Source of the DNA: Escherichia coli
GTDB lineage: Bacteria > Pseudomonadota > Gammaproteobacteria > Enterobacterales > Enterobacteriaceae
Reading direction: 5' to 3' (one strand)
DNA: 64,000 bases
Assembly: GCF_003334315.1 (NCBI RefSeq)
Contig: NZ_QOWR01000003.1
The position numbers were made by a program, and so were the translations under genes. Positions 351-50,673 of this stretch are shown piece by piece. Position 1 is the stretch's first letter; every line of letters begins with the position of its first letter. The notes below the pieces were generated by a model, which made no database searches, had not been told where the DNA came from, and saw only the letters and a program-made list of their open reading frames with translations.

Positions 351-433
351 AGAGCTCTCTCTTAGTTTAATTTCCGCCAGGTAATCAGATGACACGATTG
401 TGCTTCACGCCATCTATTAACATGTACGTCAGT

Positions 434-462
434 ATATGGGGATGTTTCCCCCACATTCAACG
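434..462 (-). promoter_or_regulatory. Heat-shock (sigma-32) promoter of lon
   Basis: Minus strand reads GTTGAAT-N13-CCCCATAT, matching the sigma-32 consensus CTTGAAA / CCCCATNT, about 90 nt upstream of the lon ATG. Confidence 0.6.
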
Positions 463-477
463 CCGAGAATAGAGGAA

Positions 478-510
478 AAATTAAAGGGGAGATAAAATCC
501 CCCCTTTTTG
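478..510 (-). terminator. Intrinsic terminator after clpX
   Basis: GC-rich hairpin (GGGGAGAT/ATCTCCCC arms) followed by a T-rich tract on the minus strand, about 30 nt past the clpX stop. Confidence 0.55.
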
Positions 511-537
511 GTTAACTAATTGTATGGGAATGGTTAA

Positions 538-4766: not shown

Positions 4767-5070
4767 GAAATATCTCCTCCGACAACGCTGAGATGTCATC
4801 CATCCCTTTAAATACTAGCCGCTTTTACCGTTTCCATTGCAGCTTAACAACAAATATTTAGGTTTCGTCCTGGTTTTTCCGTCAAGCGTATGAAGTTTAC
4901 TGATTTAAAGATTGAAACACAGGCCTCGCATCAGTGTTTCTTTTACCAGGGGCGATTATTTCGTCAACATGATGAATTTACATGCCTTACCCACTTCCCC
5001 TCGCCGTTGGCAATGTTATGATGGCGGGAATTTTTACCAAACACGCTTAAGAGTCTCTGAGAGCCCGAAC

Positions 5071-5649
5071 ATGTTCAAAAAAATCCTCTTCCCGTTAGTT
5101 GCTCTGTTTATGCTTGCAGGATGCGCAAAACCGCCAACAACTATTGAAGTTTCCCCGACGATTACACTGCCACAGCAGGATCCAAGCCTGATGGGCGTCA
5201 CCGTAAGCATTAATGGTGCCGATCAGCGTACCGATCAGGCGCTGGCAAAAGTCACCCGCGATAATCAAATCGTTACCCTGACCGCCTCCCGCGATCTGCG
5301 TTTCCTGCTGCAAGAAGTGCTGGAAAAACAGATGACCGCGCGTGGTTACATGGTTGGTCCGAATGGCCCGGTTAATCTGCAAATCATCGTTAGCCAACTG
5401 TATGCTGACGTGTCCCAGGGCAACGTGCGCTACAACATCGCGACCAAAGCGGATATCGCCATCATCGCTACCGCGCAGAATGGCAACAAAATGACCAAAA
5501 ACTATCGTGCCAGCTACAACGTTGAAGGTGCGTTCCAGGCCTCCAACAAAAATATCGCCGATGCGGTTAACAGTGTGCTGACCGATACCATCGCTGATAT
5601 GTCTCAGGACACCAGCATCCACGAATTCATCAAGCAGAACGCGCGTTAA
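5071..5649 (+). CDS. yajG: Lipoprotein YajG
   Basis: 192-aa product from ATG at 5071; signal peptide with lipobox LAGC; upstream ORF extension lacks support. Confidence 0.85.
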   Translation: MFKKILFPLVALFMLAGCAKPPTTIEVSPTITLPQQDPSLMGVTVSINGADQRTDQALAKVTRDNQIVTLTASRDLRFLLQEVLEKQMTARGYMVGPNGPVNLQIIVSQLYADVSQGNVRYNIATKADIAIIATAQNGNKMTKNYRASYNVEGAFQASNKNIADAVNSVLTDTIADMSQDTSIHEFIKQNAR

Positions 5650-5692
5650 TTTCTGCCCTCTGGCCCGGTGCAAGCCGGGCCTGTAGACGCCC

Positions 5693-7168
5693 ATGTCCAG
5701 TCAATATTTACGTATTTTTCAACAGCCGCGTTCAGCCATATTGCTGATCCTGGGTTTTGCTTCCGGGCTACCGCTCGCCCTGACATCCGGTACCTTACAG
5801 GCCTGGATGACGGTCGAGAATATTGATCTCAAAACCATTGGTTTCTTCTCTCTGGTAGGCCAGGCTTACGTTTTTAAATTCCTCTGGTCACCGCTGATGG
5901 ACCGCTACACGCCTCCATTTTTTGGGCGGCGACGCGGTTGGCTGCTCGCCACGCAAATCCTGTTATTAGTCGCCATTGCGGCGATGGGTTTTCTCGAACC
6001 AGGCACCCAACTCCGCTGGATGGCGGCGCTGGCGGTGGTGATCGCTTTTTGCTCTGCCTCCCAGGATATTGTCTTCGATGCGTGGAAAACCGATGTGCTC
6101 CCGGCAGAAGAACGTGGTGCGGGCGCGGCAATCAGCGTTCTGGGTTACCGTTTAGGGATGCTGGTTTCCGGCGGCCTAGCCCTGTGGCTGGCAGATAAAT
6201 GGCTGGGCTGGCAGGGCATGTACTGGTTGATGGCGGCGCTGTTGATCCCCTGTATTATCGCGACGTTGCTTGCACCAGAACCGACCGACACCATTCCTGT
6301 GCCAAAAACGCTGGAACAAGCGGTTGTTGCACCTCTGCGAGATTTCTTTGGTCGCAATAATGCCTGGCTTATTTTGCTTCTTATCGTGCTGTATAAGCTG
6401 GGCGACGCATTCGCCATGAGCCTGACAACCACGTTTTTGATTCGCGGCGTCGGGTTTGATGCGGGTGAAGTAGGCGTGGTTAACAAAACGCTTGGCTTAC
6501 TAGCGACCATTGTTGGCGCATTGTACGGTGGGATTTTGATGCAGCGCCTGTCACTGTTCCGGGCACTGCTGATTTTCGGCATTTTACAAGGTGCGTCTAA
6601 CGCCGGTTACTGGCTGCTGTCGATTACTGATAAGCATCTCTACAGCATGGGCGCAGCCGTCTTTTTCGAAAACCTCTGTGGCGGGATGGGCACATCAGCC
6701 TTTGTCGCGCTGTTAATGACGCTATGTAATAAGTCATTTTCCGCTACTCAATTTGCCCTGCTCTCAGCGCTTTCTGCTGTAGGGCGAGTTTATGTCGGCC
6801 CCGTGGCGGGTTGGTTTGTTGAAGCACACGGCTGGTCGACATTCTATCTATTCTCCGTCGCCGCTGCCGTACCAGGGCTTATTTTGCTGCTGGTTTGCCG
6901 CCAGACGCTTGAATATACACGAGTAAATGACAACTTTATCTCCCGTACCGCATATCCGGCAGGTTATGCCTTTGCCATGTGGACACTGGCGGCGGGCGTC
7001 AGCCTGTTGGCCGTGTGGTTACTGCTATTGACGATGGACGCGCTGGATTTGACGCACTTCTCTTTCCTGCCTGCTCTGCTGGAAGTCGGGGTTTTAGTCG
7101 CCCTTTCTGGCGTCGTGCTTGGTGGTTTGCTGGATTATCTGGCGCTACGAAAAACGCATCTGACGTAA
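5693..7168 (+). CDS. ampG: Muropeptide permease AmpG (MFS transporter)
   Basis: 491-aa polytopic membrane protein; length and sequence fit AmpG; immediately after yajG. Confidence 0.95.
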   Translation: MSSQYLRIFQQPRSAILLILGFASGLPLALTSGTLQAWMTVENIDLKTIGFFSLVGQAYVFKFLWSPLMDRYTPPFFGRRRGWLLATQILLLVAIAAMGFLEPGTQLRWMAALAVVIAFCSASQDIVFDAWKTDVLPAEERGAGAAISVLGYRLGMLVSGGLALWLADKWLGWQGMYWLMAALLIPCIIATLLAPEPTDTIPVPKTLEQAVVAPLRDFFGRNNAWLILLLIVLYKLGDAFAMSLTTTFLIRGVGFDAGEVGVVNKTLGLLATIVGALYGGILMQRLSLFRALLIFGILQGASNAGYWLLSITDKHLYSMGAAVFFENLCGGMGTSAFVALLMTLCNKSFSATQFALLSALSAVGRVYVGPVAGWFVEAHGWSTFYLFSVAAAVPGLILLLVCRQTLEYTRVNDNFISRTAYPAGYAFAMWTLAAGVSLLAVWLLLLTMDALDLTHFSFLPALLEVGVLVALSGVVLGGLLDYLALRKTHLT

Positions 7169-7624
7169 TCTGTAAATATTATTTAGCTGTAGTAATCACT
7201 CGCCGTAATTATTACGGCTAAATAAACATCAGTATCGCTTATTAATATTTGTTCTTTTGTGCGGCTTAGCGTTTGGAAATTATTGGCGCCATTTATAAAT
7301 TCTATTTTTCTTACACGATTCAGCTAATGAGTCTTTATTTTCTCATCACCCAGTTGTCACTCTAATGATAATTATTTGTTAAATAATTGTTTTATTTCAC
7401 ATTGGTTATACCAATTGCCCGCCCAGACTCCTTCAGCACTCCCCTTTTGTTATAACGCCCTTTTGCAACAGCTTCTTAAAATCAACCTGATATGTTTTGC
7501 AACATATGTGACCTGGCAGCCAAATCCAAGTAACAGGAATTTAATCATGTTTACAGTAATGTAACCTTCCCGTAAAATGCCCACACACTTTAAACGCCAC
7601 CAGATCCCGTGGAATTGAGGTCGT

Positions 7625-8575
<951 letters not shown>

Positions 8576-8584
8576 AGGGGTTGA

Positions 8585-11521
<2,937 letters not shown>

Positions 11522-11532
11522 GAGCGGCGGTT

Positions 11533-12423
11533 ATGATGTTTAAGCAATACCTGCAAGTAACGAAACCAGGCATCATCTTTGGCAACCTGATCTCGGTGAT
11601 TGGGGGATTCCTGCTGGCCTCAAAGGGCAGCATTGATTATCCCCTGTTTATCTACACGCTGGTTGGGGTGTCACTGGTTGTGGCGTCGGGTTGTGTGTTT
11701 AACAACTACATCGACAGGGATATCGACAGAAAGATGGAAAGGACGAAGAATCGGGTGCTGGTGAAAGGCCTGATCTCTCCTGCTGTCTCGCTGGTGTACG
11801 CCACGTTGCTGGGTATTGCTGGCTTTATGCTGCTGTGGTTTGGCGCGAATCCGCTGGCCTGCTGGCTGGGGGTGATGGGCTTTGTGGTTTATGTCGGCGT
11901 TTATAGCCTGTACATGAAACGCCACTCTGTCTACGGCACGTTGATTGGTTCGCTCTCCGGCGCTGCGCCGCCGGTGATCGGCTACTGTGCGGTAACCGGT
12001 GAGTTCGATAGCGGCGCAGCGATCCTGCTGGCTATCTTCAGCCTGTGGCAGATGCCTCACTCCTATGCCATCGCCATTTTCCGCTTTAAGGATTACCAGG
12101 CGGCAAACATTCCGGTATTGCCAGTGGTAAAAGGCATTTCGGTGGCGAAGAATCACATCACGCTGTATATCATCGCCTTTGCCGTTGCCACGCTGATGCT
12201 CTCTCTTGGCGGTTACGCTGGGTATAAATATCTGGTGGTCGCCGCGGCGGTTAGCGTCTGGTGGTTAGGTATGGCTCTGCGCGGTTATAAAGTTGCTGAT
12301 GACAGAATCTGGGCGCGCAAGCTGTTCGGCTTCTCTATCATCGCCATCACTGCCCTCTCGGTGATGATGTCCGTTGATTTTATGGTACCGGACTCGCATA
12401 CGCTGCTGGCTGCTGTGTGGTAA
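11533..12423 (+). CDS. cyoE: Heme O synthase (protoheme IX farnesyltransferase)
   Basis: 296-aa product [18 protein letters not shown]... from ATG at 11533; UbiA-family membrane prenyltransferase; last gene of cyo cluster. Confidence 0.94.
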
Positions 12424-13944: not shown

Positions 13945-14041
13945 GCGAATTGCCTGCTGCGCTACGCTTATCAGGCCTACAAAGTTTCTGAATTACAAAC
14001 CTTTGTAGGCCGAATCAGGCGTTCATGCCGCATCTGACATG
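13945..14041. repeat. BIME: two REP elements in inverted orientation
   Basis: GCCTGCTGCGCTACGCTTATCAGGCCTAC and GTAGGCCGAATCAGGCGTTCATGCCGCATCTGACATG between the convergent yajR and yajQ ends. Confidence 0.8.
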
Positions 14042-22085: not shown

Positions 22086-22118
22086 GCCTGATGAGACGTG
22101 ACAAGCGTCACATCAGGC
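22086..22118. repeat. REP-like palindrome
   Basis: GCCTGATGAGACG...CGTCACATCAGGC between the convergent yajO and pgpA 3' ends. Confidence 0.55.
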
Positions 22119-47967: not shown

Positions 47968-48067
47968 TGCCGGATGCGGCGTGAACGCCTTATCCGCCCT
48001 ACGCGGTTCTGGCACATTTTGCAGGCCTGATAAGACGCGGCAAGCGTCGCATCAGGCATGATGCGCC
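47968..48067. repeat. Two REP elements (BIME)
   Basis: TGCCGGATGCGGCGTGAACGCCTTATCCGCCCTAC and GCAGGCCTGATAAGACGCGGCAAGCGTCGCATCAGGCATGATGCGCC between the convergent araJ and mak ends. Confidence 0.85.
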
Positions 48068-49115: not shown

Positions 49116-50027
49116 ATGCTGTGGTTCAAAAATTTAATGGTTTACCGTCTTAGCCGCGAGATTTCGCTGCGTGCAGAAGAGATGGAAAAACAGCTAGCCT
49201 CGATGGCATTTACCCCATGCGGCAGCCAGGACATGGCGAAGATGGGCTGGGTTCCTCCGATGGGATCGCACAGCGATGCGTTAACGCACGTTGCCAATGG
49301 TCAAATTGTTATCTGCGCGCGCAAAGAAGAAAAAATCCTCCCGTCTCCGGTGATTAAACAGGCGCTGGAAGCGAAAATCGCCAAACTGGAAGCGGAACAG
49401 GCGCGTAAGCTGAAGAAAACCGAAAAAGATTCGCTGAAAGACGAAGTGCTGCACTCTCTGCTGCCGCGTGCTTTCAGCCGTTTTAGCCAGACAATGATGT
49501 GGATCGACACGGTTAACGGTTTGATTATGGTGGACTGCGCCAGTGCCAAAAAAGCGGAAGATACGCTGGCATTACTGCGTAAAAGCCTGGGGTCGTTACC
49601 GGTTGTACCATTGAGCATGGAAAACCCGATTGAACTGACGCTGACCGAATGGGTACGTTCCGGTAGTGCGGCACAGGGCTTCCAGCTGCTTGATGAAGCC
49701 GAGCTGAAATCGTTGCTGGAAGATGGCGGCGTGATCCGCGCGAAGAAACAAGATCTGACCAGCGAAGAGATCACCAATCACATTGAAGCCGGAAAAGTGG
49801 TGACTAAACTGGCGCTCGACTGGCAGCAGCGCATTCAGTTTGTGATGTGCGACGATGGTTCGCTCAAGCGTCTGAAGTTCTGCGACGAGCTGCGCGATCA
49901 AAACGAAGATATCGACCGTGAAGATTTCGCCCAGCGTTTTGATGCCGATTTCATCCTGATGACTGGTGAACTGGTAGCGTTAATTCAAAACCTGATTGAA
50001 GGATTAGGTGGCGAAGCACAACGTTAA
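49116..50027 (+). CDS. rdgC: Recombination-associated protein RdgC
   Basis: 303-aa product [27 protein letters not shown]... from ATG at 49116. Confidence 0.94.
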
Positions 50028-50044
50028 TTGCTGATTTTCCTTTA

Positions 50045-50083
50045 ATGCCGGATGCGACGCCTGCCGCGTCTTATCCGGCGTAC
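50045..50083. repeat. REP element
   Basis: ATGCCGGATGCGACGCCTGCCGCGTCTTATCCGGCGTAC 18 nt after the rdgC stop. Confidence 0.8.
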
Positions 50084-50184
50084 GAAGCCACACCAGGCAT
50101 ATAATTATTCGCTACGGCGAGCAATAATTTTTAGCGCAGCAATATTATGCGTTTTACGCTGTAACTTGCTCCATGGACGTTGTG

Positions 50185-50466
50185 TCATTGTTTTTCCTCA
50201 AGCCGGTGACGCGCTTCACTGCGAATTTTCCGCGTTGCCCCGGTTTTCACTAAATCACGTAACAGCGAAAGATCGGGTTGTTCGACAAATAAGAGTAATG
50301 ATGGATCCTCTTTTAACCACGCCGTTTTCACATCGGCAGCCAGCTGTGGATTATTAATAGCCAGCGACCGATCCTGAGGCTCAGTCAATGTCGTTAACAA
50401 CAACGCCGGGGTATGTGCGTTGCGCAATGCCGTTTGGCGTAAATGATCATTGCGACTTTGCAGCAA
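50185..50466 (-). pseudogene. ykiA: ATG-less ORF; probable gene remnant (ykiA-like)
   Basis: 93-codon minus-strand frame containing no ATG/Met codon at all (track start is TTG), no SD, adjoining an AT-rich stretch; position between rdgC and ppnP matches where I recall ykiA in K-12. Confidence 0.4.
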
Positions 50467-50673
50467 TGCACGCCACCATTCATCATCTGATTTATCTTTT
50501 ATCGTAGCCAGTTCCGCAACAATATCTGGAGATCTTCACTGATATTTATATCAACCTTGATAAATTATGAATATATCGGAAATTGAAAAAATCGCAGCAA
50601 AGGAAATATTATTATGGGTTAAAGAAAGGATATTTCAGAAAAATGCCCTCCCGTTCAAGGGGAAGGCGAGGAA

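Follow-up and report, generated by a model that had tools for sequence, protein, structure and literature searches.

Why does a single palindrome stand directly after rdgC in Escherichia coli, what might it do there, and does it bear on the decay of the genes that follow it? These questions follow up a sequence-only reading of the stretch of DNA analysed here (the window, 64,000 nucleotides of contig NZ_QOWR01000003.1, assembly GCF_003334315.1), in which the palindrome was named a REP unit and was taken to mark the edge of a decayed interval. Knowledge of REPs, short hairpin-forming repeats spread over the intergenic DNA of E. coli, goes back to 1984, and several hundred of them have been listed for K-12. 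The palindrome after rdgC, called the rdgC-REP below, represents this established class of element at its most ordinary.

Position in the rdgC-ppnP region

The segment around the palindrome has the gene order araJ, mak, rdgC, ykiD, ykiA, ppnP, aroM, yaiA and aroL in a K-12-like chromosome. Over positions 49900-50250 the identity is 100% with strain CP53 and 99.7% with MG1655 derivatives, and both values are explained by a single RdgC codon (49975-49977, ...TGEL[V]ALIQ...), which encodes Val in the window and Ala in K-12 and most strains. The rdgC-REP (50045-50083, ATGCCGGATGCGACGCCTGCCGCGTCTTATCCGGCGTAC; core GCCGGATGCGACGCCTGCCGCGTCTTATCCGGC) is extragenic, being flanked by the stops of rdgC (50027) and ykiD (50105), in the 77-bp gap in which rdgC (+) and ykiD (-) converge. 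Seventeen bases lie between the rdgC stop and position 50045, where the extended stem begins, and 19 between the stop and the GCC core at 50047, and the distance of 18 nt originally given was thus right within one base. The ykiA-like remnant that the palindrome had been said to precede is indeed found downstream; however, the 27-codon ykiD (50105-50188, minus strand) stands between the two. The features of the locus are collected in Table 1. Elsewhere in the window, the sRNA sraA was located at 422-517 (+) (Rfam RF02029, 106.7 bits); this was the only Rfam family at gathering score in the window, and no Rfam family covers REPs.

Table 1. Features of the rdgC-ppnP region, in window coordinates
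Feature	Position	Strand	Remarks
rdgC CDS, 303 aa	49116-50027	+	Stop TAA at 50025-50027; the REP is in the 3' untranslated region
Spacer from rdgC stop to foot of REP hairpin, 17 nt	50028-50044	+	IS1A target site in BL21 Star (DE3) gor KO
Single REP (palindromic unit), Z2-like	50045-50083	+	iREP (inverted form) in the sense of rdgC mRNA
REP core hairpin	50047-50079		From inverted-repeat search and fold; loop is the IS1397 insertion site
ykiD, 27 codons	50105-50188	-	Convergent with rdgC; stop 21 nt from the REP tail
ykiA pseudogene	50185-50526	-	About 124 codons remaining from the C-terminal end of a 759-aa DUF2773-domain gene
ppnP intrinsic terminator hairpin	50645-50667	-	GCCTTCCCCTTGAACGGGAGGGC, followed by a T run

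Fold and family membership

The sole inverted repeat detected between 49900 and 50300 has 14-nt arms (50047-50060 and 50066-50079) that are 86% complementary and enclose a 5-nt loop, CTGCC (50061-50065). The stem is composed of an outer segment (GCCGGAT/ATCCGGC), a G.U pair, a C-U mismatch and an inner segment (GACGC/GCGTC). The RNA fold energy was calculated as -25.5 kcal/mol for the plus strand (z -5.4) and -23.5 kcal/mol for the minus strand (z -4.2), and 0/200 shuffles folded as well. Non-complementary bases inside the stem are required of REPs (PMC3333891) and are present here as the C-U mismatch on the plus strand and as a 2x2 internal loop on the minus strand.

A consensus scan of the whole 64-kb window (GCCKGATGCG-N13-CTTATCMGGC, at most two mismatches) yielded three matches, at 22086-22118 (-), 48025-48057 (-) and 50047-50079 (+), the last two with no mismatches, and yielded none in 100 dinucleotide-preserving shuffles. 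A negative scan had been named as the outcome that would refute the REP reading, and the scan was positive. A stricter version, restricted to a loop of 4 nt and to CTAC as the tail, had no match in the window, its loop length and tail being too strict. The copy at 22086-22118 (-) carries two mismatches to the degenerate consensus, and weaker, degenerate REP-like palindromes are found at 14009-14038 (-) and 60121-60151 (+).

For the assignment to a REP class, in the nomenclature of Gilson, Bachellier and Hofnung, the Y and Z2 consensus sequences of K-12 were taken from Table 1 of Nunvar et al. (2010, PMC2817692). The minus-strand reading of the rdgC-REP, GTACGCCGGATAAGACGCGGCAGGCGTCGCATCCGGCAT, matches 26/27 conserved Z2 positions, and its alignment score is 25 to Z2 compared with 18 to Y. 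The single miss is the head tetranucleotide (minus strand 50083-50080), which is GTAC instead of the GTAG of Z2, three of the four bases being retained; on the plus strand the same change appears as a GTAC tail in place of CTAC. GTAG is highly conserved in REPs (PMC3333891). Because all other features of the family are found, GTAC is regarded as a degraded head in a true family member. As in the Z2 REP of PMC2817692, the rdgC-REP is a 33-nt imperfect palindrome with the same outer and inner stems and one internal mismatch. However, the fourth stem pair, usually T-A in Z2, is G-C as in Y units, and the loop of the printed REP consensus is one base shorter than that found here. Curated annotation was uninformative on the REP label, since the NC_000913.3 regions 404000-414000 and 5000-12000 are without any repeat_region features. 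In the one paper found to mention rdgC together with REPs, rdgC is listed with no such label.

The sequence belongs to a family that each E. coli chromosome carries in dozens of copies or more. With the 39-mer as blastn query, at least 40 similar places per chromosome were returned in 5324 E. coli records, and the lowest count in any record was 29. Another member is in the araJ/mak gap of the window, where a BIME is formed by a Y-type REP (TTGCCGGATGCGGCGTGAACGCCTTATCCGCCCTAC, about 47969-48003), a linker and an inverted z2 REP (48025-48057). This z2 unit shares its fold with the rdgC-REP and is identical to it at 30/33 core bases; of the three differences, one is compensated within the stem (T-A to G-C). 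In contrast to the two inverted units and linker at araJ/mak, the rdgC-REP stands alone: no partner REP was found within 150 bp of it in E. coli, as the description of a single unit had implied, and it does not form a BIME, which comprises at least two units of alternating orientation with defined linkers. Single REPs are a minority class in K-12 (84/584; PMC3333891).

Natural IS insertions at the locus

In strain BH100 substr. MG2017, a copy of IS1397 is located between rdgC and the downstream small ORF (L006, 1068-2502), with the junctions ...GCCGGATGCGACGCCTG|TGAACTGCACC... and ...GGTTCAGTTCA|CTGCCGCGTCTTATCCGGC.... These junctions place the element in the REP loop (window 50061-50065) with a 3-bp target duplication, CTG. 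The same junction was identified in 3/5426 genomes (BH100 MG2017, Z226-7 and JNE25-005) and is missing from sister BH100 assemblies, which suggests a recent IS1397 transposition. Specific insertion of IS1397 into E. coli REPs is known experimentally (PMC1525189 and references there); thus, a REP-specific transposase treats the sequence after rdgC as a REP. A second insertion, of IS1A, was found in BL21 Star (DE3) gor KO in the 17-nt spacer at window 50034-50042 (L129, about 1718-2500), with a 9-bp target duplication, GATTTTCCT. It moves the REP to a distance of about 0.77 kb from rdgC.

That the palindrome arose by chance and is unrelated to REPs is a reading to which we give practically no credence, as 0/100 shuffles matched the consensus and 0/200 folded as well, 26/27 consensus positions agree, at least 40 copies are present per genome and IS1397 targets the loop. 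As with E. coli REPs in general, the element is extragenic, occurs in many copies per genome and is an IS1397 target. We therefore regard 50045-50083, with high confidence, as a genuine but ordinary single REP of the Z2 kind in the gap of the convergent genes rdgC and ykiD, and the original identification of a REP after rdgC was correct.

Conservation within E. coli and across Escherichia

Conservation within the species was assessed with a 120-nt segment (49985-50104) encompassing the end of rdgC, the REP and the spacer, which was counted as present at ≥95% identity over ≥80% of its length. It was present in 5363/5426 complete E. coli genomes, and the exceptions to the intact segment include the IS1397 alleles and the IS1A insertion. 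In a comparison of 11 strains chosen to span the identity range, variable columns numbered 0/39 in the REP compared with 6/38 in the flanking intergenic sequence (Fisher p = 0.012, from these 11 strains only). Conservation of this strength could reflect gene conversion among REP copies rather than selection at the rdgC locus.

For comparison beyond the species, a degenerate RdgC motif pattern was used to collect 120 rdgC loci from species-representative genomes. An orthologous REP starting 20 nt after the rdgC stop was found in E. albertii and in two other Escherichia lineages (SCPM-O-B-8794 and E69, both deposited as E. coli); rdgC DNA in these lineages is 92-94.5% identical to the window. 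All Escherichia lineages examined have an identical spacing from the rdgC stop to the REP. Across the orthologues no change is seen in the outer stem or the 3' half, the loop varies, and the 5' inner stem has undergone only pair-preserving changes (A-U to G-U and C-G to U-G). All 65/65 stem cells are paired in the four Escherichia orthologues and one paralogue, a value that is not significant, being equalled by 115/500 shuffles. The plus-strand tail is the canonical CTAC (GTAG head) only in E. albertii and is GTAA (TTAC head) in E69. From these comparisons, the REP has occupied this exact site since before the split of E. coli, E. albertii and the two other lineages. In E. albertii (L011) a further REP-like palindrome of 31 nt, GCCGGATAAAGTGCATATACCATATCCGGC, is inserted 13 nt downstream of the orthologous REP and about 50-95 nt after the rdgC stop, and the SF0329-family gene described below is intact there.

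These findings bear on whether the rdgC-REP is an active mobile element, namely a REPIN-like substrate of the RAYT transposase TnpA-REP, or a site for proteins acting at the DNA level (gyrase, IHF or Pol I), as described for BIMEs. The REP family is bound by TnpA-REP and the stem mismatch needed for binding is kept (PMC3333891). However, BIME functions need paired units and both binding and cleavage by TnpA-REP need GTAG (PMC3333891), whereas the rdgC-REP is single, has the head GTAC (TTAC in E69) and has remained static at one orthologous site across the genus. An active TnpA-REP substrate is therefore unlikely, and the mobile or protein-site reading as a whole is judged very improbable. With GTAC in place of GTAG at its head and without a partner REP, the rdgC-REP is probably an immobile relic and not an active substrate of the REP-associated transposase.

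The two-gene interval between the REP and ppnP

The nature of the sequence beyond the REP was established from strain O145:H28 RM12761, in which two intact minus-strand genes are located between the REP and ppnP. The first encodes a 151-aa SF0329-family protein (NCBIfam NF049912, 87.5 bits) and the second a 759-aa DUF2773-domain protein with a signal-peptide-like N-terminus (L128, 1932-4211). The protein product of ykiD, MTQRPWSKLQRKTHNIAALKIIARRSE, joins the 11 N-terminal to the 16 C-terminal residues of the 151-aa protein, and ykiD keeps both the original start, which overlaps the upstream stop (ATGA), and the original stop. Judged by this correspondence, ykiD is an in-frame 372-bp deletion remnant of the SF0329-family gene. 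Likewise, ykiA corresponds to the 3' end of the 759-aa DUF2773 gene, over about 124 codons. The literature search on ykiD returned only unrelated papers. A reading of the two genes as a defence system was considered and dropped, as neither the SF0329-family nor the DUF2773 protein matched any PADLOC defence model; NCBIfam recognises only SF0329_fam, and the 759-aa protein had no NCBIfam match.

Among the 5426 E. coli genomes, the inner segment of the SF0329-family gene is kept in only 921 and the 5' 1.9 kb of the DUF2773 gene in only 447. By these counts and the comparison with other genera below, the interval is Escherichia-specific, comprises two genes and has decayed in most strains, with the REP on its stable, rdgC-proximal side. 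The claim that the REP marks the edge of a decayed interval is thereby borne out as geometry, the 120-nt segment being present in 5363/5426 genomes against the 921 and 447 that keep the respective gene parts. The REP simply adjoins the conserved 3' end of rdgC, and no causal or limiting part in the decay of the interval is assigned to it.

The rdgC 3' flank in other genera

Neither the rdgC-REP nor the two-gene interval was found in genera outside Escherichia (Salmonella, Citrobacter, Klebsiella and Enterobacter). In Salmonella enterica subsp. arizonae, Citrobacter, Klebsiella, Enterobacter, Kluyvera and others, a gap of about 40-70 bp is all that separates the convergent rdgC and ppnP, and it contains a lineage-specific hairpin, often with T runs; some Citrobacter have REPs of their own between the two genes. 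In 81% of 118 loci from other bacteria, the 70 nt after the rdgC stop fold at -20 kcal/mol or below, compared with 2% of coding controls (Wilcoxon p = 1e-20), and a stable hairpin right after rdgC is therefore general.

The bidirectional intrinsic terminators found between rdgC and ppnP in Salmonella, Klebsiella, Enterobacter and Kluyvera occupy the same position after the rdgC stop as the REP and presumably have the same role as a 3' hairpin. However, their sequence is unrelated to the REP, they are followed by T runs and they serve both convergent genes directly, whereas in Escherichia the two-gene interval parts rdgC from the ppnP-side hairpin. The ppnP terminator of the window (50645-50667) probably corresponds to the rdgC/ppnP hairpin of the other genera, a homology proposed from its position and a shared CCTTCC/GGAAGG motif. 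The Escherichia arrangement thus consists of an ancestral-looking hairpin beside ppnP, the two-gene interval in the middle and the REP in the rdgC-proximal position.

The presence of intrinsic-looking terminators at the same place in other genera, together with the stable G+C-rich hairpin right after the stop codon, would also fit a Rho-independent terminator that only resembles a REP. This explanation is nevertheless considered highly unlikely: on the plus strand the hairpin is followed by GTACGAAGCCACACC, which has no U run, and is not called by the terminator scan; on the minus strand it is followed by CATTAAAGGAAAATC, again without a U run; and its sequence is that of the REP repeat family. 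A weak terminator-like hairpin, TTCGCTACGGCGAG (50108-50121), followed by CAATAATTTT, was noted at window 50108-50131 (+), antisense to ykiD and about 25 nt past the REP. This hairpin could help to end rdgC transcripts instead of the REP.

Proposed role in rdgC mRNA

The likely role of the rdgC-REP is the classical one, protection of rdgC mRNA by a stem-loop at its 3' end. In the rdgC transcript the REP would fold into a stable hairpin 17 nt beyond the stop codon. Transcription is assumed to continue past it and to end diffusely downstream, probably via Rho, inside the untranslated ykiD/ykiA remnant, after which the 3'-to-5' exonucleases PNPase and RNase II would trim the transcript back to the REP hairpin, which would in this way set and protect the steady-state 3' end of rdgC mRNA. 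As the hairpin is almost equally stable on the other strand, it could protect the convergent transcript of ykiD or of the SF0329-family gene too. The insertion of the two-gene interval would have parted rdgC from the ancestral terminator hairpin, whose position the REP may now fill.

Precedents for these steps are the action of REPs as exonuclease barriers and the trimming of Rho-dependent transcripts to U-less stem-loops (PMC6061677, PMC12306157). As in the U-less 3' stem-loops of Rho-dependent transcripts described by Dar and Sorek (2018, PMC6061677), the rdgC-REP is placed just after the coding region, is without a U tract and has a fold energy in the range of intrinsic terminators. A Rho-dependent 3' end has been reported inside ykiA (MG1655 408811 (+), window about 50324 (-); Adams et al., 2021, PMC7815308 supplement), which indicates that Rho acts in the untranslated interval. 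In those supplementary tables of the E. coli 3'-end map (PMC7815308) that were consulted, no 3' end is listed at MG1655 409030-409089 and there is no rdgC entry, and the RepRanger supplements contain nothing on rdgC.

An effect on translation was also weighed, in which the hairpin would stall the terminating ribosome at the stop codon and, as in the mechanism of Liang, Rudd and Deutscher (2015), lower the synthesis of RdgC by triggering cleavage of the mRNA and rescue by tmRNA. The REP is near the stop codon, in the common class of 1-20 nt, and REPs close to the stop lower translation according to the summary in PMC12306157. However, the extended stem, at 17 nt, and the GCC core, at 19 nt, lie just outside the 15-nt stalling range, as summarised in PMC12306157, and the spacing is identical in all Escherichia lineages examined. 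Lowered translation is accordingly an improbable role, and protection of the mRNA 3' end is preferred.

How the present arrangement came about is a more tentative matter. One possible history is that the insertion of the two genes (759-aa DUF2773 and 151-aa SF0329-family) cut rdgC off from the ancestral rdgC/ppnP terminator, that the REP was then kept by selection as a replacement 3' hairpin for rdgC, and that it persisted as a fixed boundary during independent decay of the inserted genes in different lineages, ykiA and ykiD being the debris. We regard this course of events as conceivable but doubtful. A bolder version would have the REP arrive with the two-gene interval, or be its integration site.

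Implications

For annotators, ykiD, an annotated small protein, is what an in-frame deletion has left of a larger gene, 27 codons in all. Natural insertions of IS1397 and IS1 at the locus may provide ready-made rdgC alleles in which the REP is disrupted or uncoupled from the gene. Within Escherichia, the locus would be a clean natural example of a REP replacing a terminator hairpin after a gene insertion, and the degraded GTAG head, taken with orthology across the genus, indicates that a REP can persist long after the probable loss of its mobility.
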